DNA of 64,000 nt, from positions 133,015-197,014 of the forward strand of contig CAYOQI010000001.1 in NCBI GenBank assembly GCA_964406075.1, read 5' to 3'. The DNA comes from an uncultured Pseudomonadales bacterium. Its GTDB lineage: Bacteria > Patescibacteriota > Microgenomatia > UBA1400 > PJMF01. A program made the position numbers and the translations under genes. Under the pieces are notes generated by a model that saw only the letters and a list, made by a program, of their open reading frames with translations, was not told the DNA's origin and made no database searches. Below are positions 22,224 through 52,901 of this stretch, one piece after another; within the stretch, counting starts at the first letter, position 1, and each line of letters opens with the position of its first letter.

Positions 22224-22247
22224 TCATTTCATTATCCACAAACTAAG

Positions 22248-22354
22248 TGTCATCCTGAATTCGACTGACGATAGGAAGATCGAGTGAAGGATCTGTTAAC
22301 AGCAAAACTAAATTTAACCTCTTCACAGATTCCTCGGAGTACCTCGGAATGACA
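22248..22354. repeat. Palindromic repeat copy A (TGTCATCCTGA...CCTCGGAATGACA)
   Basis: 107 bp. The outer arms TGTCATCCTGA and CCTCGGAATGACA are an imperfect inverted pair. The inner arms GGATCTGT/ACAGATTC pair with one mismatch. About 80% alignable to copy B. Confidence 0.8.
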
Positions 22355-22360
22355 ATTCAA

Positions 22361-22651
22361 TTAACTATTCCATTCGACATATAAATCTTTCAACCTTGGA
22401 TTCTCCTCCTTAATTAGCTCTAACTTTTTGTTTCTATTCCAACCTTTTAACTCCTTTTCTCTTTCGATTGCTTGATTAATTGATGAATATTCTTCAATAT
22501 AGACAAGTTTACTAATGTTGTACTTGGCAGTAAAACTATTTGGATAAATTTTCTCTTTGTGCTCCCAAATTCTCCCTTCTAAATCGCCTGTCACTCCAAT
22601 GTAAGTTTTATTTGAAATACTCATCATGATGTAAATGAAATATTTTTTCAC
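22361..22651 (-). CDS. GIY-YIG nuclease family protein (small, YhbQ/COG2827-like)
   Basis: 96 aa with a GTG start. YFIYIMMSISNKTYIGVTGDLEGRIWEHK...REKELKGWNRNKK. Confidence 0.85.
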   Translation of the reverse strand: MKKYFIYIMMSISNKTYIGVTGDLEGRIWEHKEKIYPNSFTAKYNISKLVYIEEYSSINQAIEREKELKGWNRNKKLELIKEENPRLKDLYVEWNS

Positions 22652-22675
22652 TGAAAAAAACTATATCAAAAAGTA

Positions 22676-22766
22676 TGTCATCCTGAGGAGGTACGACGAA
22701 GAATCTGTTAACAGTAAAACTGATTTTTGCCTTAATACAGATTCCTCAGATTACCTCGGAATGGCA
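22676..22766. repeat. Palindromic repeat copy B
   Basis: 91 bp, in the same orientation as copy A: TGTCATCCTGAGG...GAAGAATCTGTTAACAGTAAAACT...ACAGATTCCTCAGATTACCTCGGAATGGCA. Confidence 0.8.
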
Positions 22767-22772
22767 TATAAT
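22767..22772 (+). promoter_or_regulatory. -10 box TATAAT, 6 nt upstream of the helicase ATG
   Basis: TATAAT-acgtga-ATG(22779). No Shine-Dalgarno. It directly abuts repeat copy B. Confidence 0.4.
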
Positions 22773-22778
22773 ACGTGA

Positions 22779-32563: not shown

Positions 32564-34786
32564 TTAACTTGATTCTTCCGACTTCTTTATCTCATCTCGA
32601 ATCAGAGCAGCAGTTTCAAAATCCATTTGGTCGGCAGCTTTTCGCATGGCACGATTGAGTTTGGCACGAATGTTGTCTTTTTCTGGGGGTAAGTAGGCGT
32701 CCCAGTCGAGCTTGGCTAAATCGATCGACTGATGAGCAGAAATTTGAATAATTTTTTGTTTAAACTTGGGCTCTTCTGGCTGATTCTTTTTTTGAAATGA
32801 AAGCAATTCTTTCTTCTTCCCTTTTCGTCCATCAGTGGAGTACGTTCCATCTTCTTCTTTGACTCGATGCACTAATTGCTCGCGAATTGGTTTCTGAATT
32901 GTTTCAGGGGTAATACTATTTTTCTCGTTGAACGCGATTTGCTTTTCTCGACGACGTTCTACCTCTTCAATCGCTTCTTTCATCGCCTTTGAAATGACAT
33001 CGGCATAGAGAATGACGTGTCCTTCACTATGACGAGCTGCTCGCCCCATGGTCTGAATCAAAGCAGTTCGGGATCGCAGAAAACCTGCTTTGTCTGCATC
33101 CAGAATTGCAACGAGTGTAACTTCGGGTAAATCTAAACCTTCTCGAAGCAAGTTAATTCCAACTAACACATCGTACGTACCACGTCTTAAATCGTCTAAA
33201 ATATCTGATCGATCAAGTGTTTCAACATCTGAGTGAAGATACGCAACTTGAATTTCTGGTGGTGGATCAGTTGGAAAGGTATCGATATCTCGATTTACTT
33301 TGAATAACTTCTCTGCATTTTTATTATCATTTAAATACTCAGTTAAAACCTCAGACATACGTTTGGTTAAGGTCGTTACTAAGACACGCTGGCCTTTTTT
33401 CTTTCGTTTAATAATTTCTTTGTATAAATCAGGAATTTGAGACTCCGTCGGACGAATTTCAATATCAGGGTCAATCAAGCCAGTCGGACGGATCAACTGT
33501 TCTGCTATTCGCCCCTCTGAGTGCTCGACTTCCCATTTCTCAGGTGTCGCGGACACATGTAGGAGTTGAGTCGTATTGGCCAAGAATTCAGGGAACTGAA
33601 GCGGTCGATTATCAAGTGCAGAGGGTAAACGAAATCCATACTTAATCAAGGTTTCTTTACGTGACCGATCACCAGCATACATTCCTCGAATTTGAGGTAA
33701 GGTCATGTGACTCTCATCAACAATCGTTAAATACGATCCATCACCAAACTCTTTGGCATTGTGCTTCATGTAATCAAGCAAAGTGAATGGGGCACTTCCT
33801 TCTGCTCGTCCATCAAAGTAACGAGAGTAATTTTCAATTCCATTCACAAAACCGAGTTCACGAATCATATCAATGTCATACTTCACTTTTTGTTCCAACC
33901 GATACGCCTCAACAATTTTTCCTTCCCCTCGCATTTGAGCTAATCTCTCAGCTAAATCTCGTTCAATATGTTGAAGTGACTCTTCTTGTGTCAGAGGATT
34001 TGTTTGATAGTGTTTGGCTGGATAAATGATGATGCGTTTGGCTTTATTTTTAATTCTTTCATCAGAAAAACTGGGTTCAGATCTATCAGGCAAAATCTCA
34101 CCGGTCATGGGATCAATCCAATCAATTTTATCCAATTTATTCTCAAAACTTACTAGACGTAACGCACGATCTTCATATGCCGGCCAAATATTGATAATCT
34201 CACCTCGGACTCGAAAACTTCCACGTTTGAAATCTACATCCGATCTTTCATATTGAAGGTTAATTAATTGTTTCAACAATGTTTCGCGGGAAATAATTTC
34301 ACCTTCCACTAATTGGAGCACATACTTTCCGTATTCAACTGGTGAACCAAGGTTATAAATACAGGACACTGAGGCCACGATAATACAGTCAGGGCGGGTC
34401 AAAAGATTGGTGGTAGAAGCTAAACGCAATTTATCAATTTCATCATTGATGGTGGCTTCTTTTTCGATATAGGTATCGGTCGTGGGAATATAGGCTTCAG
34501 GCTGGTAATAGTCGTAATACGAAACGAAGTAACTGACGGCATTATTCGGGAAAAAGTCACGAAATTCTTGATAGAGTTGGGCTGCTAAGGTTTTGTTATG
34601 GGAAATGATGAGAGTGGGCTTCTGAACATTCTGAATCACATTGGCCATAGTAAATGTTTTACCCGAACCTGTGACTCCAAGTAAGGTTTGATGCGGTTGG
34701 CCTTCTTTGACCCACTTTGATAACGCCTCAATTGCTTGCGGTTGGTCACCTGTCGGCTGGAATCTTGAAACTAATTTAAAGCTCAT
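32564..34786 (-). CDS. uvrB: Excinuclease ABC subunit B
   Basis: MSFKLVSRFQPTGDQPQAI matches canonical UvrB N-termini. GVTGSGKTF, DESH and a C-terminal UVR motif FETAALIRDEI are present. The track's TTG start at 34810 was rejected in favour of ATG 34786. Confidence 0.95.
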   Translation of the reverse strand: MSFKLVSRFQPTGDQPQAIEALSKWVKEGQPHQTLLGVTGSGKTFTMANVIQNVQKPTLIISHNKTLAAQLYQEFRDFFPNNAVSYFVSYYDYYQPEAYIPTTDTYIEKEATINDEIDKLRLASTTNLLTRPDCIIVASVSCIYNLGSPVEYGKYVLQLVEGEIISRETLLKQLINLQYERSDVDFKRGSFRVRGEIINIWPAYEDRALRLVSFENKLDKIDWIDPMTGEILPDRSEPSFSDERIKNKAKRIIIYPAKHYQTNPLTQEESLQHIERDLAERLAQMRGEGKIVEAYRLEQKVKYDIDMIRELGFVNGIENYSRYFDGRAEGSAPFTLLDYMKHNAKEFGDGSYLTIVDESHMTLPQIRGMYAGDRSRKETLIKYGFRLPSALDNRPLQFPEFLANTTQLLHVSATPEKWEVEHSEGRIAEQLIRPTGLIDPDIEIRPTESQIPDLYKEIIKRKKKGQRVLVTTLTKRMSEVLTEYLNDNKNAEKLFKVNRDIDTFPTDPPPEIQVAYLHSDVETLDRSDILDDLRRGTYDVLVGINLLREGLDLPEVTLVAILDADKAGFLRSRTALIQTMGRAARHSEGHVILYADVISKAMKEAIEEVERRREKQIAFNEKNSITPETIQKPIREQLVHRVKEEDGTYSTDGRKGKKKELLSFQKKNQPEEPKFKQKIIQISAHQSIDLAKLDWDAYLPPEKDNIRAKLNRAMRKAADQMDFETAALIRDEIKKSEESS

Positions 34787-34803
34787 ATAAAAAAGTATTT
34801 CTT

Positions 34804-34871
34804 CCGCCAAAGGCGGATCAGCCTCTGGCTGAGAATAGCATCAGGTTGACCTGCCTGCCGGCAGGCAGGTC
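34804..34871. repeat. Cluster of three GC-rich palindromes, including a perfect 24-bp one
   Basis: CCGCCaaaGGCGG (34804-16), CAGCCtctGGCTG (34819-31) and GACCTGCCTGCCGGCAGGCAGGTC (34848-71). A related copy lies at 54616-54654. Confidence 0.7.
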
Positions 34872-34934
34872 TCCAGTAGGTTTGAATCGAGATTGAAGGT
34901 TAAATGGCACAGTTGATTATTGTAACACTTTTCT

Positions 34935-35384
34935 TGTCATCCTGAGCGATCAGGTAATCCTGACAGTCGAAGGATCCCTGTCACGGGAGAGTATTAAGAT
35001 TCCAAGTTATACTTAAATCTTGCCACTGTGGGTTTAGGCTATTAATGAGTTTCTCTTTCTTTTTCCTTGACCATCCTTTGAGTTGCTTTTCTCGGTTTAT
35101 TGCATCCATAATTTGATTGAAGTCTTCGGCATACACTAAAGTATGACACTGGTACTTTTTGGTAAATCCTTCAATCAAATCCTGTTTATGTTCGTAAACT
35201 CTTCGTTCTAAATCATTCGTTACTCCTATATAGAGAGTTCCTGAAACACTACTCATGAAATATACATGGTACTGATGTGATGACACTTACGTATTATCAA
35301 TCAAGAAAAGTAACTCCTTCAATAACCAATGATGCTGACAGCGATTCCTCGAATGTCTGGAATACCAGACGCCTCGGAATGACA
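34935..35384 (-). mobile_element. GIY-YIG gene nested between the two arms of the TGTCATCC...GGAATGACA palindromic element (copy C)
   Basis: Left arm TGTCATCCTGAGCGA..GTCGAAGGATCCCTGTCA (34935-34983). Right arm ACAGCGATTCCTCGAA..CGCCTCGGAATGACA (35338-35384). The ORF occupies the position of the loop in copies A and B. Mobility is an inference. Confidence 0.5.
34981..35286 (-). CDS. GIY-YIG nuclease family protein (paralog of 22361-22651)
   Basis: 101 aa. YHVYFMSSVSGTLYIGVTNDLERRVYEHK...REKQLKGWSRKKK. Confidence 0.85.
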   Translation of the reverse strand: MSSHQYHVYFMSSVSGTLYIGVTNDLERRVYEHKQDLIEGFTKKYQCHTLVYAEDFNQIMDAINREKQLKGWSRKKKEKLINSLNPQWQDLSITWNLNTLP

Positions 35385-35399
35385 AAAGAATAAGATATA

Positions 35400-37838: not shown

Positions 37839-39518
37839 TTAAATATTTTCAGATATTTTTGCATCCTTCAGGATCATCTGCATCGACGTATTTCCATGCC
37901 AAACATTCAGACCTAAGGTTCCAGCAACATCAACAGTCATTCCGGTAAGCAATTGATCTTGACGTTCTCCCCAACCAAAAGCCAAGCAATCTAAAGGTTT
38001 CGTTTCACCATCTAGATCATTCGCGGATCGAAGAAGCAATTTCACATGCTTTCCTTCACGACCAATTACTTTACTCTGAAGAATTTTCATATTTCTGAGA
38101 GCAAAAACTGGCTCGACATTGCCATTGCCAAACGGTGCCATTTTTTCTAAAAATTGAATAAATTCTAATGTGACTAATATCGGATTCAATTCCACTTCTA
38201 CAGTCAAACTTGGAGTGAGCATCTCTGCACTGATCTCAGATTTCGCTAGTGCAAATAGTTTTTGTTGCACAATTTCTACTTTTTCAGGAAGCAAACCAAA
38301 TCCTGCCGCCATTGGATGTCCACCGACTTCAAGTAAATCATCACGAACGGTCCGAATAAATTCCACAATATTCACCCCGGCCACACTTCGGGCGGAAGCT
38401 TTGACAAAGGTCTCACCAATGCTCATGACAATTGCCGGTTTGTAGTACTCCTCGACCATTTTTCCCGCGATCAACCCAATCACACCCTCGTGATAATCTG
38501 GTGAAGCAAGGATAACTACATGTTCATTTTCCCAAGTCTTGGCTTGAAGTCGAGCATTATCAACCATTTCCCAAGTCAAACCTTGGCGTTCGGTATTGGT
38601 GGTATGAAGCAAGGAAGCTAGTCGTTGAATTTCGCTTGGATCATCACTAACTAACGCATGAAAAGCATCGGTGGCAGAACTTAAACGCCCCATGGCGTTA
38701 ATGCGCGGTCCGATCACAAAATTAATACTTTTTTCATTGATTTCACCTTGGTGAATATTCGCAAGTTGGCAAAGCTCAACTAATGCTGGTCGCTTGGTGG
38801 TCTGTAATGCTTTTATTCCGAAAGATGCAAAACTGCGATTGGCGTGCAGTAACGGCATTTGATCCGAGATGGTAGCGATTCCGCATAAATCTAGCGTTCG
38901 TTCAGTTGATTTCGATTTCAATGCTCTGGCTAAAAACCATGCCACGGTTGTCCCACAAAGCTGAGTGGTGTGAACGAAAGCATGTGCATTTGGAAATAAA
39001 AATTCTCCTGGGTGTTCCACATCTAATTCAGGCGAATGATGATCAGTGATAATTACATCTATACCCTGCTTAACTATTTTGTTCACCGCCTCATGAGCGA
39101 CAATGCCGTTGTCTACAGTGATGATCAAATCAGGTTTTGAGTTTTCCAATAATGAACCAAGCGAGCGATCTGACATGCCATAGCCATGTTTAGCTCGATC
39201 TGGGATGAAAACACGTGCTTCTAAACCAAGATCCTTTAAGGCTTCCCACAACACCGCTGTGGCACACACACCGTCTGCATCGTAATCACCAAAAATCACC
39301 ACGTCTTCTTTCTTTTCAATCGCTTTTTCAATTCGAGAAACCGCTTTTTGAAGTTTTTTTTCATCAATGCCCACATCAGATGGAAGGAGATCTAAAGGCG
39401 AAGGAGTAGCAAAAAACTCTTTGGTTTCTTCGGCTGAGATATGACGATTATTGAGTAAAACCCGAATGACTTCTTTATGGGTTTGATAGTTTTCTTCAGA
39501 TAAAATTTCCCAGAGCAT
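37839..39518 (-). CDS. recJ: Single-stranded-DNA-specific exonuclease RecJ
   Basis: DHH-family motifs IFGDYDADGV, TVDNG and ITDHHSP, plus the DHHA1 block GGHPMAAG. Confidence 0.9.
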   Translation of the reverse strand: MLWEILSEENYQTHKEVIRVLLNNRHISAEETKEFFATPSPLDLLPSDVGIDEKKLQKAVSRIEKAIEKKEDVVIFGDYDADGVCATAVLWEALKDLGLEARVFIPDRAKHGYGMSDRSLGSLLENSKPDLIITVDNGIVAHEAVNKIVKQGIDVIITDHHSPELDVEHPGEFLFPNAHAFVHTTQLCGTTVAWFLARALKSKSTERTLDLCGIATISDQMPLLHANRSFASFGIKALQTTKRPALVELCQLANIHQGEINEKSINFVIGPRINAMGRLSSATDAFHALVSDDPSEIQRLASLLHTTNTERQGLTWEMVDNARLQAKTWENEHVVILASPDYHEGVIGLIAGKMVEEYYKPAIVMSIGETFVKASARSVAGVNIVEFIRTVRDDLLEVGGHPMAAGFGLLPEKVEIVQQKLFALAKSEISAEMLTPSLTVEVELNPILVTLEFIQFLEKMAPFGNGNVEPVFALRNMKILQSKVIGREGKHVKLLLRSANDLDGETKPLDCLAFGWGERQDQLLTGMTVDVAGTLGLNVWHGNTSMQMILKDAKISENI

Positions 39519-39525
39519 AAGCCAT

Positions 39526-39531
39526 AGTATA
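39526..39531 (-). promoter_or_regulatory. -10 box TATACT, 7 nt upstream of the recJ ATG
   Basis: The minus strand reads TATACT-atggctt-ATG(39518). No Shine-Dalgarno. Confidence 0.35.
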
Positions 39532-39575
39532 ACGCATAGTTTAGGGACTAGGTTCTAGGGGATAGATATTAAGGT

Positions 39576-39710
39576 TGTCATTTCCCACCTTGGGAGAAAA
39601 CATCTGGTGATAACCAGATAAATGAGGGGAAGCAGAGAAGTACTCCCTCACGGCCTGGATTACCATGCTTCTCTCCCCAAGGAGAGAGGATTACATGCTC
39701 GGGGATGACA
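39576..39710. repeat. ORF-less long imperfect palindrome with TGTCAT.../...GGATGACA termini (copy D, divergent)
   Basis: TGTCATTTCCCACCTTGGGAGAAAA...TTCTCTCCCCAAGGAGAGAGG...CTCGGGGATGACA. A second GGATGACA lies at 39717-39724. Confidence 0.6.
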
Positions 39711-39730
39711 AAAAAAGGATGACAAATGCC

Positions 39731-39758
39731 TTGATTTTTTACTACTATAGGATATAAT
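39731..39758 (+). promoter_or_regulatory. Sigma70-type promoter TTGATT-N16-TATAAT
   Basis: TTGATT at 39731-36 and TATAAT at 39753-58, upstream of the small ORF at 39786. Confidence 0.55.
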
Positions 39759-39785
39759 CAACACACTGATTAAGAGGAGATAAAA

Positions 39786-39959
39786 ATGAAAGTGCCAGAA
39801 AAAGTCGGTCGAGTATTTGCAGTCCAGCTTTTAGCTGGAACTGTCTTCATCCTGGGGGCACTTGTTGCCATCATTAACAATGAAGACAGCGCAACGTTTA
39901 TTGTAGTGGGTTTGGCCCTAATGGCCATAGCCCCACTGTTAAAGTACTTACCTGATTAA
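39786..39959 (+). CDS. Unannotated small membrane protein (57 aa, 2 TM)
   Basis: Below the ORF-track cutoff. AAGAGGAG lies 7 nt upstream of the ATG. Translation: MKVPEKVGRVFAVQLLAGTVFILGALVAIINNEDSATFIVVGLALMAIAPLLKYLPD. It has its own promoter and terminator. Confidence 0.6.
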   Translation: MKVPEKVGRVFAVQLLAGTVFILGALVAIINNEDSATFIVVGLALMAIAPLLKYLPD

Positions 39960-39979
39960 TCATTTGGTTCGTGCACCCG

Positions 39980-40007
39980 CCGCCCTCCCAAAGGGCGGTT
40001 TTTTTTT
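39980..40007 (+). terminator. Rho-independent terminator
   Basis: CCGCCCtcccaaaGGGCGG followed by T9. Confidence 0.8.
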
Positions 40008-40050
40008 GCTTAATTAAGGATATTGTCTTTAACTTATACCCCTCTATTAA

Positions 40051-40078
40051 TCTCTCCCCAAAGGGAGAGAAATTTTTT
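40051..40078 (+). terminator. Second terminator-like hairpin
   Basis: TCTCTCCCcaaaGGGAGAGA followed by AATTTTTT. Confidence 0.5.
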
Positions 40079-40079
40079 G

Positions 40080-40088
40080 TGTTAACAT
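40080..40088 (+). promoter_or_regulatory. Extended -10 box TGtTAACAT, 6 nt upstream of the cca ATG
   Basis: TGTTAACAT-aatgcc-ATG(40095). No Shine-Dalgarno. Confidence 0.35.
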
Positions 40089-40094
40089 AATGCC

Positions 40095-41684
40095 ATGCAA
40101 CTCACTGTTCCAATCGACGTTTTACACCTTCTTCACCATTTAAAAGAACATGGTTTTCAAGCCTATATCGTGGGAGGTTCAGTTCGAGATTTGCTCATGG
40201 GAAATGAAAAACCGAACGATTGGGATTTCACCACCAATGCAAAGCCAGAAGAAATTCAAAAACTTTTCCCGGAAAGTTTTTACGAAAATGAATTTGGGAC
40301 AGTGGCGATAACCAGAAAACATATCGCAGAGCAGTTTGGACTACCACAACTTACTCAAGCAAATATGATGAAGCGAGAATCAGAGGTTAGAGATCAGGGA
40401 CTAGGGGCTAGAACTATTGATTTGGAAAGTGCCACCAAAATCCATACTTCTTTATCAGAACCATCCTTAGAGACAGATGCTTTTCAGGATGAAAGCGATG
40501 TTGACGATTTATTTGAAATTACTACTTTCCGATCAGATGGAATTTACACAGATCACAGAAGACCTGAGGAAGTGACATGGGGGAAAACTCTCGAAGAAGA
40601 TTTAGCCCGCAGAGATTTTACGATTAATGCGATGGCTATAGAGATAAATTCCAATGTTCAAATTCCAAATGCCAAAGATAGCTCAACGTTTGCTGAAACC
40701 TTTAACCTTGAACCAAGTGCCTATACTCTCATTGATCCGTACAACGGTGTTCAAGATTTAGAGGATAAAATCATTCGGACCGTCGGAGATCCACATGTGC
40801 GATTTCAAGAAGATGCACTCCGTATGATTCGAGCCATTCGACTTTCAACTCAATTACTTTTCGAAATTGAGTCACAAACGTTAGAAGCAATTTCACAACA
40901 CGCATCAACACTTGTACATATCAGTGCCGAACGCATTCGAGATGAGTTCCTAAAAATGCTGGCTAGTGATTCTCCAGTGGAAGCCATACTTCAGTTGGAG
41001 AAAGTGAATCTTTTACAAATTTTACTTCCTGAATTACTCGAAGCAAAAAATATTGAACAAGGTGGACATCACACCACGAATGTCTGGGAACACTCCCTCG
41101 CCTCACTCGAAAACTGCCCGTCACCTGATCCAATCGTTCGATTTGCAACATTGATTCATGACATTGCAAAACCTCGAACTCAAGGCCGAAATGGCAATAC
41201 AATCACTTTTTATAATCATGAAATTGTCGGCGCTCGCATCGCCAAAGATATTGCGTACAGGTTTAAACTCTCCAAAAAAGATATCAACCGTATGTACATT
41301 CTGGTTCGATACCACATGTTCTACTATCAGCCAGAAAACACTGATGCATCCATTCGACGGTTCATGAGAAAAGTCGGATTAGAAAATATAAACGACATTA
41401 TTGATTTGAGAATTGGTGATCGACTTGGAAGTGGCGCACGAGAAACAAGTTGGCGATTGGAAGAAATGAAAAAAAGGATGCAAGAACAACTGAATCAGCC
41501 GTTTGATGTCAATGATTTGGCTATTGATGGAAATGATTTGATGAAAGAATTCAACTTGAAACCCGGACCTCAAATCGGAAAAATCCTCCATACGTTGTTT
41601 GAAGAAGTGTTGGAAAAACCTGAATTGAATACGAGGGAAATATTGTTGGAGAAGGCAGACAAACTAATTAATCGATCCTCTTGA
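40095..41684 (+). CDS. cca: CCA-adding enzyme / tRNA nucleotidyltransferase with HD domain
   Basis: AYIVGGSVRDLLMG..DWDFTT, ITTFRSDGIYTDHRRP, RDFTINA, and HD-domain blocks HSLASL...LIHDIAKP. An insertion of about 60 aa lies between the GTV and TTFR blocks. Confidence 0.85.
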   Translation: MQLTVPIDVLHLLHHLKEHGFQAYIVGGSVRDLLMGNEKPNDWDFTTNAKPEEIQKLFPESFYENEFGTVAITRKHIAEQFGLPQLTQANMMKRESEVRDQGLGARTIDLESATKIHTSLSEPSLETDAFQDESDVDDLFEITTFRSDGIYTDHRRPEEVTWGKTLEEDLARRDFTINAMAIEINSNVQIPNAKDSSTFAETFNLEPSAYTLIDPYNGVQDLEDKIIRTVGDPHVRFQEDALRMIRAIRLSTQLLFEIESQTLEAISQHASTLVHISAERIRDEFLKMLASDSPVEAILQLEKVNLLQILLPELLEAKNIEQGGHHTTNVWEHSLASLENCPSPDPIVRFATLIHDIAKPRTQGRNGNTITFYNHEIVGARIAKDIAYRFKLSKKDINRMYILVRYHMFYYQPENTDASIRRFMRKVGLENINDIIDLRIGDRLGSGARETSWRLEEMKKRMQEQLNQPFDVNDLAIDGNDLMKEFNLKPGPQIGKILHTLFEEVLEKPELNTREILLEKADKLINRSS

Positions 41685-41885
41685 AGTACAACGAATCGTT
41701 AACGTTTTCCCTACTTTTGATAAAGAAAAATCTTTCTCTGAATTTTCTCCATTCACACTAATGAGGAAGTTAACCATTAGGAACCAATAGGAAAAATTTG
41801 CTCCTGGAATAACTAAACTTTCTCCAATTTTCATGATACGAACTTGACCTTGTGCTTCAGATAAATCCATATATTTTTTTACAAA

Positions 41886-42785
41886 TTATTTAGTTTTCTT
41901 CTTCAACTTCGTTTGAATATCTTCCCAAAGCAACATCAATGGAACTGCCGTAAAGGTCGAAGAATACGTTCCAGTAATTGAACCAATGAGGAGTGCCACC
42001 GCAAACCATCGTAATGTTTCACCTCCCAATAATACTAAGGAAGTTAACATCAAGATAATGGTCAAAGAATTATTAATCGAACGATTGACTGTCTGCAAAG
42101 CTGCCGTACTCGCGAGTTCGGAGAGTTTTACATTTGGATGTTTATGTCCAAGTTCTCGAATTCGATCAAAAACCACAATCGTATCGTGAACAGAGAATGA
42201 CAGTGTCGTCAAAATAGCAGTAACGAAAAGAACGTCTACTTCCACCCCTTTCCACCACCCCAACAAACTAAATGCACTCAATAAAATAAGCGTGTCATGA
42301 AACATCGCCAAAACTGCTGCTAAACCATACTTTAGTTCACTAAACTGTCGCATCAAAAAGATCATGATGATAATTGCGACAATCAGAATTCCGATAACCG
42401 TTTTGACCAACAACTCTCGTCCTAATACCGGCCCAACTGATTCGAATCTTTGTTCGTCAAACATTGGATATTTCCGTTCCAAGACAGCTTGAATTTCTTG
42501 TTTTTTTTCACTATTTATTTCTGCTGACCGAATCACAAAAGTTTCTTGATTTGTTTTTTGTACAGAAGTTACAGGTATAAATTGCTCAATATCCGCTTTC
42601 ACTTCCTCTGGAAGTAGCTCAGTTTGATCCGCTTTAATCATGCCTATTTCCCATAAAGATCCACCAGTGAAATCAATCGATGGTTTTACTTTGTATCGAG
42701 CTAAACTGTAGACACCAGGGATCAAAATAACTAAAGAAAATAGTAAAAAAAGCCAGTAGTGTTTAAAAATTGAAAATTTTTGCAT
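41886..42785 (-). CDS. secF: Protein translocase subunit SecF
   Basis: 299 aa. SIDFTGGSLWE, then 6 TM segments with HDTLILLSAFSLLG and DTIVVFDRIRE. Confidence 0.9.
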   Translation of the reverse strand: MQKFSIFKHYWLFLLFSLVILIPGVYSLARYKVKPSIDFTGGSLWEIGMIKADQTELLPEEVKADIEQFIPVTSVQKTNQETFVIRSAEINSEKKQEIQAVLERKYPMFDEQRFESVGPVLGRELLVKTVIGILIVAIIIMIFLMRQFSELKYGLAAVLAMFHDTLILLSAFSLLGWWKGVEVDVLFVTAILTTLSFSVHDTIVVFDRIRELGHKHPNVKLSELASTAALQTVNRSINNSLTIILMLTSLVLLGGETLRWFAVALLIGSITGTYSSTFTAVPLMLLWEDIQTKLKKKTK

Positions 42786-42787
42786 TT

Positions 42788-44155
42788 TTATTCTGATTTC
42801 AAACTGTACTCTTTTAGAAATAACCTCATGAATGTACGGGTGACAATCACACCTGTAAACAAACTAACTAAAACACCAAGTAATAATGTCACACCAAATC
42901 CCCGAACAAGACCACTACTGTTTAAAAATTGAAAGTTCAAAGGATTTATTAAAATCAAAGCGGTGAGTATCGTCGTAATATTGGCATCTTTAATACTATC
43001 CCAGGCTCGTCCAAATCCCAGCTGTAACGCAGTCTCAAATGGTTTTCCAACTCTCAATTCTTCTTTAATGCGTTCAAAAATTAAAATGTTGGCATCAACT
43101 GCCATACCTACTGATAACAGTAAACCCGCGATTCCTGGAAGTGTGACAGTAATCGATAATAACTTATACAATGCAACAGTAATGATGGCATAGATAATCA
43201 GAGCAATATCTGCAATTACCCCCTTCCAACCATAAACCAAAATCATAAAAAGCATGACCAACCCAATTCCAACAAGACCGGCTCGAACACTTTGTTGAAC
43301 GGATTCTTGACCAAGGCTCGCTCCAACTGCTCTTACTTCAATCGGAACAATCGGCACAGGAAGTGCTCCAGCATTTAACTGGATACTTAATTGTTTGGCA
43401 TCCTCAACTGAAAATTGTCCCGTAATACTTGCTTGCCCGGTTAAAATTGGATCATTAATAGTCGGAGTCATAACAGGGTAACCGTCGAGAAAAATTCCTA
43501 AAGCTTTTCCTCTATTCCCTTGAGTTATTTCTGCAAATTTTTTCGTGCCTTCTTCATTAAATTCCATACCGACTTGTGGTTGGCCTGTTTGCGGATCAAA
43601 TTGAACTGATGAGCGCTTGAGGTCAGCACCGGTTAAACCAGTTTCTTGAAATGAAGACAAAAATCCCATAGCCGATAACGTTGCTTCCGGGGTCATTTCA
43701 CCTTGCAAACGAAAATCGAGTTCAGCTGTGGTTCCGATGAGTTGAAGGGCTTGTTGTGGATCATCAACACCGGCTAGTTCGACAATAATTCGATAGTCGT
43801 ACGCTGATTTGGAGGTTTGAACCACTGGCTCACTCACACCGAATAAGTCGACCCGACGGAGAATCACTTCTCGTGCTGAAGCAAGTGCTACATCTCGATC
43901 CTCTTCTGGAAGTTGAGTCATGTCTGCTTGCAAGACGATCTGTGTTCCACCTTGAATATCTAAACCTTGTTTCAGCTCGAAGTCTTTTTGAAATTGTTTG
44001 CCAAAGAGGTTGAAGTTTATATTTGGACGAACCAAAGAAATCGTTTGATCTCTTCCCAAACGATTGAGAGGGATTTCCATTTTTTTTGGCAGAACAATAA
44101 ATCCAGCAAGAATGGTAATGATTACTATGAATATGAATCGTCGCCAGTATTTCAT
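42788..44155 (-). CDS. secD: Protein translocase subunit SecD
   Basis: 455 aa. LGLDIQGGT, a periplasmic domain, LTLPGIAGLLLSVGMAVDANILIFERIKEE. It lies immediately upstream of secF. Confidence 0.9.
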   Translation of the reverse strand: MKYWRRFIFIVIITILAGFIVLPKKMEIPLNRLGRDQTISLVRPNINFNLFGKQFQKDFELKQGLDIQGGTQIVLQADMTQLPEEDRDVALASAREVILRRVDLFGVSEPVVQTSKSAYDYRIIVELAGVDDPQQALQLIGTTAELDFRLQGEMTPEATLSAMGFLSSFQETGLTGADLKRSSVQFDPQTGQPQVGMEFNEEGTKKFAEITQGNRGKALGIFLDGYPVMTPTINDPILTGQASITGQFSVEDAKQLSIQLNAGALPVPIVPIEVRAVGASLGQESVQQSVRAGLVGIGLVMLFMILVYGWKGVIADIALIIYAIITVALYKLLSITVTLPGIAGLLLSVGMAVDANILIFERIKEELRVGKPFETALQLGFGRAWDSIKDANITTILTALILINPLNFQFLNSSGLVRGFGVTLLLGVLVSLFTGVIVTRTFMRLFLKEYSLKSE

Positions 44156-52828: not shown

Positions 52829-52901
52829 GGCCCCATCGTCTAGAGGCCTAGGACACCAGGTTCTCATCCTGGGAACCCCGATTCGAATTCGGGTGGGGTC
52901 A
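52829..52901 (+). tRNA. tRNA-Glu (anticodon CUC)
   Basis: Cloverleaf folded by hand. Acceptor GGCCCCA/TGGGGTC, D-arm GTCT..GGAC, anticodon stem CCAGG/CCTGG with loop TTCTCAT, 4-nt variable loop, T-arm CCCGA-TTCGAAT-TCGGG, discriminator A. CCA is not encoded. Confidence 0.9.

Follow-up and report, generated by a model that had tools for sequence, protein, structure and literature searches.

Two GIY-YIG nuclease genes with cognate inverted hairpin repeats, probable Ssn/SRM modules of a Patescibacteria-like genome

The window analysed here is a 64,000-nucleotide (nt) stretch of contig CAYOQI010000001.1 (positions 133,015 to 197,014), which contains two small genes for GIY-YIG nucleases, here called ssn1 and ssn2, each enclosed by inverted hairpin repeats. 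Both loci are very probably (we would put it at about 85%) Ssn/SRM modules of a Patescibacteria-like genome, with the repeats as their cognate, Ssn-related motifs. The Patescibacteria assignment is taken from the names attached to the best matches of the aspartyl-tRNA synthetase and of the Ssn proteins. They are a new example of a nuclease and hairpin system published in 2025, with long-looped and doubled variants of the repeat. The original prediction, made at the ssn1 locus, had envisaged a small GIY-YIG nuclease with cognate hairpin repeats, forming a selfish or domesticated module comparable to repetitive extragenic palindromes and their associated tyrosine transposases (REP/RAYT). This core idea holds; the further claim that such a module was uncharacterised does not, the Ssn family having been described biochemically and genomically by Chenal et al. 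(Nat Commun 16:2388, 2025; PMC11893778). As a discovery the finding is of little weight, given that the combination of nuclease and hairpin, its biochemistry and the REP/RAYT analogy were all published in that year.

Ssn proteins were defined by Chenal et al. as single-domain GIY-YIG proteins of about 94 amino acids (CDD cd10448), which bind a hairpin repeat solely as single-stranded DNA (ssDNA) and cut a few nt upstream of it (PMC11893778). In Neisseria the repeat goes by the name of NTS (CGTCATTCCCGCGMAVGCGGGAATCYRG), its general name being "SRM", and the ssn genes are themselves flanked by NTS/SRM repeats; the GTC preceding the palindrome matters most for cleavage and the C following it matters most for binding (PMC11893778). 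The enzyme of N. meningitidis, SsnA (NMV_0044), has the catalytic residues Y6, Y17 and E64 and does not bind RNA, and in Neisseria the system has been shown to affect transformation at the level of the host (PMC11893778). The same authors drew the comparison with IS200/IS605 and REP/RAYT themselves, and raised the mobility of Ssn modules as a hypothesis that they did not test (PMC11893778). Our literature search with the repeat sequence strings returned solely this study and unrelated primer matches.

The window proteins agree with this description in being single-domain GIY-YIG proteins of about 95-100 amino acids with the same catalytic Tyr/Tyr/Glu, the equivalents of Y6, Y17 and E64 of N. 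meningitidis SsnA being the residues listed in Table 1; the Tyr-to-Glu spacing of 47-48 residues is that of Y17 and E64. The domain (Pfam PF01541) spans residues 3-76 of the 96 in Ssn1 (E = 1.9e-14) and 6-78 of the 101 in Ssn2 (E about 1e-14), and there is no other Pfam match and no accessory domain, apart from a weak match of T5orf172 (PF10544) to the same stretch of Ssn1 (E = 3e-4). In an alignment of 28 sequences the tyrosine of the YIG motif, an arginine, a histidine and the glutamate of the REK motif are invariant. No NCBIfam model scored above cut-off for either protein, and PADLOC returned no defence-system match. An exact look-up of the 96-amino-acid sequence gave no match. The nearest structures in the PDB, by family profile, are the distant UPF0213 proteins 1zg2 (E = 1.6e-9) and 1ywl (E = 8.5e-8); UPF0213/YhbQ proteins share the GIY-YIG catalytic domain but lack the EHK...GFTxKY...NPxWxDL signature of the window proteins. 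Slx1 and the GIY-YIG homing endonucleases of the I-TevI type likewise have the catalytic domain in common with Ssn1 and Ssn2, but the window proteins possess neither the extra DNA-binding domain of the I-TevI type nor its intron or intein context. A weak similarity to TIGR01453, the group I intron endonuclease model (E about 1e-3; 19 bits against a cut-off of 56), is all that would suggest a homing endonuclease within a group I intron or similar self-splicing element, an explanation to which we assign a negligible probability: Rfam scans of the window recovered no intron RNA even at E values up to 10, the elements are intergenic and interrupt no gene, and proteins of 96-101 amino acids with a single domain are without I-TevI-type DNA-binding domains. 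On these three grounds the group I intron homing endonuclease is effectively refuted.

Gene calling obscures the catalytic motif in Ssn2 and one of its homologues. Both ssn2 (35256-35286) and the homologue P0002 (L002, 2968-3000) had been called from an internal ATG, giving proteins of 91 amino acids from which the first strand, with the GIY tyrosine, is lost; upstream in-frame starts (GTG at 35286 in the window, ATG in L002) restore ...Y-H-V-Y-F/I-M... at the N-terminus.

At the first locus, the 96-amino-acid open reading frame (ORF) stands between two + strand repeat copies, A (22248-22354, 107 nt) at a distance of 6 nt and B (22676-22766, 91 nt) at a distance of 24 nt. These coordinates and distances, as well as the termini, inner stem and loop said to be common to the two copies, are all found as the original prediction described them. 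The shared termini read TGTCATCCTGA and ACCTCGGAATG(A/G)CA, the inner pairing is ATCTGT/ACAGAT in both, and 69 nt align ungapped at 81% identity (repeat finder). Within the window the combination of TGTCATCCTGA and ACCTCGGAATGRCA is confined to this locus and to 34935/35384, the ends of a second locus (34935-35384) in which the same termini enclose a GIY-YIG paralogue of 101 amino acids that is 49% identical to Ssn1.

The "nested palindrome" of about 100 nt is an inverted pair of hairpin units, each of 30-49 nt, with 28 nt between them. The pair is split by those 28 nt in each doublet of locus 1 and by the ssn2 gene at locus 2. Hence the notion of two direct copies bracketing the gene stands in so far as a full inverted doublet lies on each side of ssn1, but the elementary unit is the shorter hairpin, and the usual layout, seen at 34935-35384 and at most homologous loci, is one unit upstream of the gene and an inverted one downstream. 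Each unit is built of GTC, a 5-bp stem (AT-YYY), a loop, the complementary stem and then C; read one way, all six ends give TGTCAT, YCY, loop, RGR, ATC and a short conserved tail, which is TGT at locus 1 and (C/G)CTGTCA at locus 2. Left and right units differ by two compensated base-pair changes (ATCCT/AGGAT vs ATTCC/GGAAT). The loops measure 12-31 nt, some with an apical hairpin, and the long units of locus 2 carry apical hairpins that are unrelated to each other (TCAGG/CCTGA vs GTCTGG/CCAGAC). Ssn/SRM loci are likewise characterised by oriented hairpin repeats that flank the gene on either side and have the core GTC-AT-YYY...RRR-AT-C, and the frame is the same in detail: the right-hand unit of copy A reads TGTCAT-TCC-GAGGTACTCCGA-GGA-ATC-TGT, to be set beside CGTCAT-TCC-CGCGMAVGCG-GGA-ATC-YRG of NTS. 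The closing C is present in all six window units and GTC in five; the exception is unit B-right, in which GCC replaces the cleavage-critical GTC and which, by analogy with the Neisseria repeat, may be bound but not cut.

Table 1. Positions in the window of the genes, hairpin units and spacers at the two ssn loci
Feature	Position	Strand	Description
Unit A-left	22248..22296	+	TGTCAT-CCT...AGG-ATC-TGT, long loop; SRM-like hairpin; left end of doublet A
Spacer of doublet A, 28 nt	22297..22324	.	Holds conserved TAACAG(C/T)AAAACT, also in B
Unit A-right	22325..22354	-	Minus-strand reading TGTCAT-TCC-GAGGTACTCCGA-GGA-ATC-TGT
ssn1	22361..22651	-	96-aa single-domain GIY-YIG nuclease, GTG start; Tyr7, Tyr17, Glu65
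Unit B-left	22676..22708	+	TGTCAT-CCT...AGA-ATC-TGT; one basal-stem mismatch
Spacer of doublet B, 28 nt	22709..22736	.	
Unit B-right	22737..22766	-	TGCCAT-TCC...GGA-ATC-TGT; GCC replaces GTC
Unit C, left end of ORF-bearing element	34935..34985	+	TGTCAT-CCT-GAGCG-[TCAGG TAAT CCTGA]-GTCGA-AGG-ATC-CCTGTCA; ssn2 stop codon falls within CTGTCA
ssn2	34981..35286	-	101-aa single-domain GIY-YIG nuclease, GTG start; Tyr9, Tyr19, Glu66
Unit D, right end of ORF-bearing element	35334..35384	-	Minus-strand TGTCAT-TCC-GAGGC-[GTCTGG TATT CCAGAC]-ATTCGA-GGA-ATC-GCTGTCA

Copies A and B and the units of locus 2 are not chance occurrences. The core GTCAT-YCY-N(4-45)-RGR-ATC occurs five times in the 64 kb, against 0.39 expected, and solely at the two GIY-YIG genes. 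Furthermore, a nhmmer profile built solely from 77 metagenome copies and run on the window recovered A (E = 8.6e-10), B (E = 4.9e-8), 34933-35001 (E = 2.6e-5) and 35336-35385 (E = 5.7e-4), with no further match below E = 0.05 in the 64 kb, all matches thus falling at ssn genes. A looser pattern, comprising GTC, AYYYY, a loop of up to 50 nt, the complement with one mismatch allowed and C, gave 18 matches in this AT-rich window against 19.9 expected; being uninformative for the window, it was applied solely to the positional profile in related loci.

The most extensive evidence comes from 80 homologous loci of many phyla, whose proteins are 49-68% identical to Ssn2. Matches to the strict published SRM pattern lie within 400 nt of the gene at 20 of the 80, on both sides in 8, and their geometry is that of a + unit ahead of the gene, typically 30-60 nt from its start, and of an inverted unit beyond its end. 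A relaxed seed detects a unit upstream at 64 loci, downstream at 57, on both sides at 49 and in any position at 72 of the 80. Within 250 nt, 78 units are in the + and 28 in the - orientation upstream of the genes, compared with 18 and 78 downstream, the background level being some 2-3 units in each 250-nt bin. Covariation is evident in the basal stem: in 91 of 121 units the 5 nt are matched within 60 nt by an exactly complementary sequence with C after it, compared with 2.5 when the stems of different units are exchanged, and six stems recur (ATTCC, ATCCT, ATCCC, ATTCT, ATTTC and ACCCC). Several of these units read TGTCATTCCCGCGAAAGCGGGAATCCAG, which agrees with the consensus of the Neisseria NTS in 27 of 28 positions; TGTCATCCTGAGCGAAGCGAAGGATCCC, found in others, represents the class to which the window units belong, and expanded-loop versions of this class are found in L015, L018, L026, L027 and L035. 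Where a gene lies between two units, these nearly always belong to the same class (19 and 18 loci vs 1 mixed). Protein similarity tracks hairpin class weakly, with 59.2% identity within and 57.0% between classes, and Ssn2 resembles proteins that have NTS-type hairpins (up to 69%) no less than those whose hairpins are of its own type. Alternating + and - arrays of units with periods of about 76 nt or 62 nt adjoin some ssn homologues (L032, 4773-5673; L082; L021; L047) and resemble the clusters of REP sequences known as bacterial interspersed mosaic elements.

Several observations weigh against assigning the window loci to the Ssn/SRM system. The published SRM pattern, HGTCWYN(0-2)YYVSBRHN(0-5)WNVSBRGN(0-2)RNCYNB, has no match in the window (0.16 expected), because it makes no room for loops as long as those of the window units. 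The Ssn assignment is set by size, residues and the flanking repeats of homologues, and cleavage of ssDNA by Ssn1 and Ssn2 would be a property carried over from the Neisseria enzyme. As ssDNA the single units are predicted to be weakly stable (z-scores of +0.5 to -2.5) and two left-type units lack the basal hairpin at minimum energy; the case for the hairpin is therefore comparative. At unit A-right, which matches the right-unit profile at E = 2.3e-5, the minimum-energy fold of the ssDNA is the ATTCC/GGAAT hairpin. Finally, the whole window holds six units, against hundreds of dispersed copies in Neisseria.

With regard to the first of these points, the published pattern is a search device and not a biological definition. 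It is too narrow, missing a large cognate class, the GAGCG...CGAAGG type with expanded loops; given 20 of 80 loci with the strict pattern vs 72 of 80 with the relaxed seed, the reported association frequencies are therefore underestimates. The window loci differ from the published system in several respects: two paralogues occur in one genome of the Patescibacteria type, no dispersed copies are seen within the 64 kb, the units are long-looped and lie outside the published SRM pattern, and the repeats also form inverted doublets of about 100 nt, an arrangement that goes unmentioned in the main text of Chenal et al. (PMC11893778). Two paralogues with distinct flanking units in one small genome make a convenient pair for testing specificity.

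On the Ssn reading, Ssn1 and Ssn2 would be Mg-dependent endonucleases of the Ssn family. Wherever DNA becomes single-stranded, as in uptake, replication, repair or conjugation, a unit would fold into a hairpin, to which the nuclease most likely binds, nicking a few nt 5' of GTCAT, as the Neisseria enzyme does with its own repeat. The strand cut would be solely that which reads GTCAT...ATC. An inverted pair, whether placed around a gene or forming an ORF-less doublet of about 100 nt, would present one cleavable unit per strand, at the 5' boundary, and the doublet would in this way be a strand-independent target. The predicted outcomes are that repeat-bearing ssDNA is cut or restricted, with recombination modulated as a result, and that the gene and its repeats are spread and maintained; such spread is probable because close relatives differ in whether they have the module. 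By analogy with Neisseria transformation, the function may be to restrict ssDNA that enters the cell; it may also be self-propagation, or the two together.

Presence and absence were assessed at the orthologous spacers of relatives. Between the genes for aspartyl-tRNA synthetase and UvrB, L088 and L090/L091 (synthetases 79-82% identical) have spacers of 72-91 nt, as against the 450-nt element in the window. Between the HIT and helicase genes, L094 has a spacer of 109 nt without the module, L092 (1593-1871) has an unrelated ORF of 92 amino acids, with a helicase N-terminus nearly identical to that of the window, and L093 (651-1558) has two other ORFs of 133 and 142 amino acids. L089 was left out of the empty-site comparison on account of runs of N. 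Conversely, L002 has an ssn2-like element (77% amino acid identity, same unit sequences) between the CCA-adding enzyme and SecF; the orthologous interval of the window (40095-42785) is without an ssn element, and the flanking RecJ, CCA-adding enzyme and SecF are 62-69% identical. The ssn modules, judging from these comparisons of sequence, are not ancient fixtures; the original prediction had named an ancient, fixed and invariant presence as the outcome that would speak against it, and the presence of the module varies among relatives. The proposal that loci without the gene would define the insertion boundaries succeeded in part: empty sites exist at both loci, but no nucleotide-precise junction could be drawn, because the intergenic DNA is too diverged, and no target-site duplication was seen at the window loci when compared with the empty sites of relatives. 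Whole-module presence and absence at two loci is the kind of evidence needed to judge the mobility of Ssn modules.

Two further features of these intervals may be recorded. The HIT-helicase spacer (22224-22778 in the window) is a variable spot. The block of RecJ, CCA-adding enzyme, SecF and SecD (38445-43976) is syntenic with L002, and an ORF of 68 amino acids (41664-41870) occupies in the window the place taken in L002 by the ssn element and two ORFs.

Beyond the window, ORF-less doublets of the same type are frequent in metagenomes. A metagenome scan for both termini placed 55-85 nt apart yielded at least 120 exact-termini matches with GC fractions of 0.29-0.74, of which 80 were fetched (454 kb). 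Their consensus is TGTCATCCTGAGCGAAGCGAAGGATCT, a variable palindrome and then AGATTCCTCGTCGCTTCGCTCCTCGGAATGACA, and their left-type and right-type ends have the same polarity as those of the ORF-bearing element. Among the matches listed, an Ssn-like protein is encoded in just one of the 80 fetched doublet loci. The expected co-occurrence of repeats with GIY-YIG genes is therefore borne out from one side, the ssn genes being nearly always flanked by units, but not from the other, most metagenome doublets being solo; the association is asymmetric, as it is for REP/RAYT and for NTS/SsnA. Inverted doublets are common, widespread and mostly solo, and by analogy with NTS each would offer one cleavable unit per strand.

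These distributions bear on the purpose of the module. The gene with its inverted unit pair could be an autonomous selfish mobile element, the doublets being its non-autonomous derivatives, similar to miniature inverted-repeat transposable elements (MITEs) or REPINs, and the nuclease serving its own spread and not the host. We consider this possible but less likely than not. It is compatible with the Ssn identity and competes with it solely over the purpose of the module. Empty sites at both window loci in close relatives, the ssn2-like element at a different site in L002, the common end polarity of doublets and ORF-bearing element, and the number and compositional range of the metagenome doublets (at least 120; GC 0.29-0.74) all agree with it. 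To our knowledge GIY-YIG enzymes act by hydrolysing DNA, with no covalent intermediate, and on this established property of the fold a GIY-YIG protein alone would be incapable of strand transfer, which argues against such an element, as do the lack of any target-site duplication or nucleotide-precise junction between empty and filled sites in our comparison and the fact that deletion or recombination would equally explain presence and absence. On the published side, the genes predicted to have been horizontally transferred in Patescibacteria include GIY-YIG genes (PMC12455944), which favours selfish spread, and the demonstrated effect of the Neisseria system on transformation counts against it (PMC11893778). 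The narrower proposition, that ssn and its inverted pair are autonomous mobile DNA from which ORF-less doublets of 80-110 nt (TGTCATCCTGAGCGAAGCGAAGGATCT...AGATTCCTCG...CCTCGGAATGACA) derive as non-autonomous copies, we consider rather unlikely. If it were true, it would define a prokaryotic class of mobile DNA propagated by a hydrolytic GIY-YIG ssDNA nuclease instead of a transposase, with nick-induced repair or homing as the probable route.

The same doublets might be MITEs of the ordinary kind, mobilised by an unrelated transposase whose gene lies elsewhere, with the GIY-YIG gene a passenger or a chance neighbour of the insertion. Their ends do resemble terminal inverted repeats (TGTCATCCTGAGG / CCTCGGAATGACA), and 79 of the 80 metagenome doublets are without an ssn gene in the fetched locus, among the matches listed. 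The reverse association, however, is strong and oriented, 72 of 80 ssn homologues having adjoining units at a density far above background; no transposase was found at either locus, and the core of the repeat is the experimentally defined recognition motif of Ssn (PMC11893778). We therefore think the MITE explanation highly improbable.

The comparison with known hairpin-based systems is one of layout. REP/RAYT loci also consist of a single-copy nuclease gene flanked by cognate short palindromic repeats that are mostly dispersed away from the gene, and both REP/RAYT and REPIN sequences include inverted doublets able to fold into a long ssDNA hairpin. They differ in that the window gene is of the GIY-YIG and not the Y1/HUH type, with no other ORF inside either module, and in that the repeat sequences are unrelated to the window units. 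RAYT-type HUH/Y1 enzymes form a covalent 5'-phosphotyrosine intermediate, and we know of no strand-transfer chemistry for a GIY-YIG enzyme. Hence the likeness to REP/RAYT is in layout only. IS200/IS605 elements share with the window modules the small size, the subterminal hairpins recognised in ssDNA, the position of the gene between two hairpin ends and the lack of a visible target-site duplication; the window modules differ in having neither TnpA nor TnpB and in ends that are inverted copies of one motif, which leaves one recognisable end per strand.

Some of the solo doublets have features of their own. A low-GC subfamily (0.32-0.37; L106, L110, L113, L117, L119, L127, L142, L145, L147, L149, L163 and L167) has a conserved interior, ...GGATCACAC...CAATCTTTGT...GTGTGATTCC..., so that, as far as sequence conservation can tell, the spacer as well as the hairpin ends is either under constraint or recently copied. 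Others contain tandem partial units, such as TGTCATCCTGAGCGAAGCGCC repeated three times in L107 (1576-1683), or nested extra units (L101, L114 and L155), which suggests slippage or the insertion of one unit into another. At L116, L120, L121, L098 and L143, 5-7 nt some way outside the two ends are mutually reverse-complementary (e.g. AAAGTC...GACTTT and AAAACC...GGTTTT), and these doublets appear to sit within a larger palindrome or to have been inserted into one. In the window, a 47-amino-acid ORF (22635-22778, +) runs straight through repeat B (…YVILRRYDEESVNS…); pseudo-peptides encoded by repeats are likely to give rise to spurious hypothetical proteins, and also to the unusual C-terminal tails of longer homologues (P0011, P0022, P0031 and P0078).

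Copy B was also said to abut the -10 box of the helicase gene, and so it does: TATAAT at 22767-22772 follows the copy directly and lies 6 nt before the start codon. Relatives without the repeat keep TATAAT or TACAAT 6-7 nt before the helicase start, and the place where a -35 element would be expected has thus been taken over by the repeat. A consensus promoter scan detected no full promoter at copy B and the helicase gene, and promoter and terminator scans of the window gave nothing above shuffle expectation. This setting is one of the points that would favour the repeats being RNA or transcription signals (terminators, mRNA stabilisers or promoter-modifying inserts) with an incidental link to the nuclease; the doublets are, moreover, intergenic, and doublet B folds well as RNA, with a z-score of about -4 on both strands (-3.9), as against just -1.4 for A. 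We judge this explanation very unlikely nevertheless, as the scan found no intrinsic terminators, Rfam at gathering or permissive thresholds gave no match to the repeats, N. meningitidis SsnA does not bind RNA (PMC11893778), and the stereotyped inverted geometry at ssn genes in many phyla would be left unexplained. In the window as a whole, Rfam at both thresholds returned solely a tRNA-Glu at 52829 and noise-level snoRNA and miRNA matches; these scans rule out a known structured RNA as the identity of the repeat.

Boxes resembling a -10 element recur 6-8 nt upstream of start codons at the helicase gene (22767-22772), ssn1 (22660-22665, TATAGT, 8 nt upstream on the minus strand), ssn2 (35293-35298) and the old uvrB start (34915-34920). 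The types seen are TATAAT, TACAAT, TATAGT and GATAAT, and the same holds for helicase and uvrB of relatives (L088, L092-L094), a pattern of sequence which suggests that leaderless transcripts are usual in this lineage. The GATAAT box of ssn2 forms part of a promoter-like TTGAAG-N18-GATAAT (35322-35293) inside the ssn2 element.

Next to the second module, the 5' end of uvrB is present twice (34745-34910, minus strand). A pseudo-start at 34910-34869 (VPFNLQSRFKPTGD), with a TACAAT box 7 nt upstream, matches the true uvrB start of L088 at 31 of 42 nt; it is followed by an 82-nt segment (34868-34787) with three hairpins (GACCTGCCTGCCGGCAGGCAGGTC, CAGCCAGAGGCTG and TCCGCCTTTGGCGGA) and a T-run, after which the real start (MSFKLVSRFQPTGD) stands at 34786. 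This looks like a small insertion in the first codons of uvrB, carrying with it a replacement 5' end.

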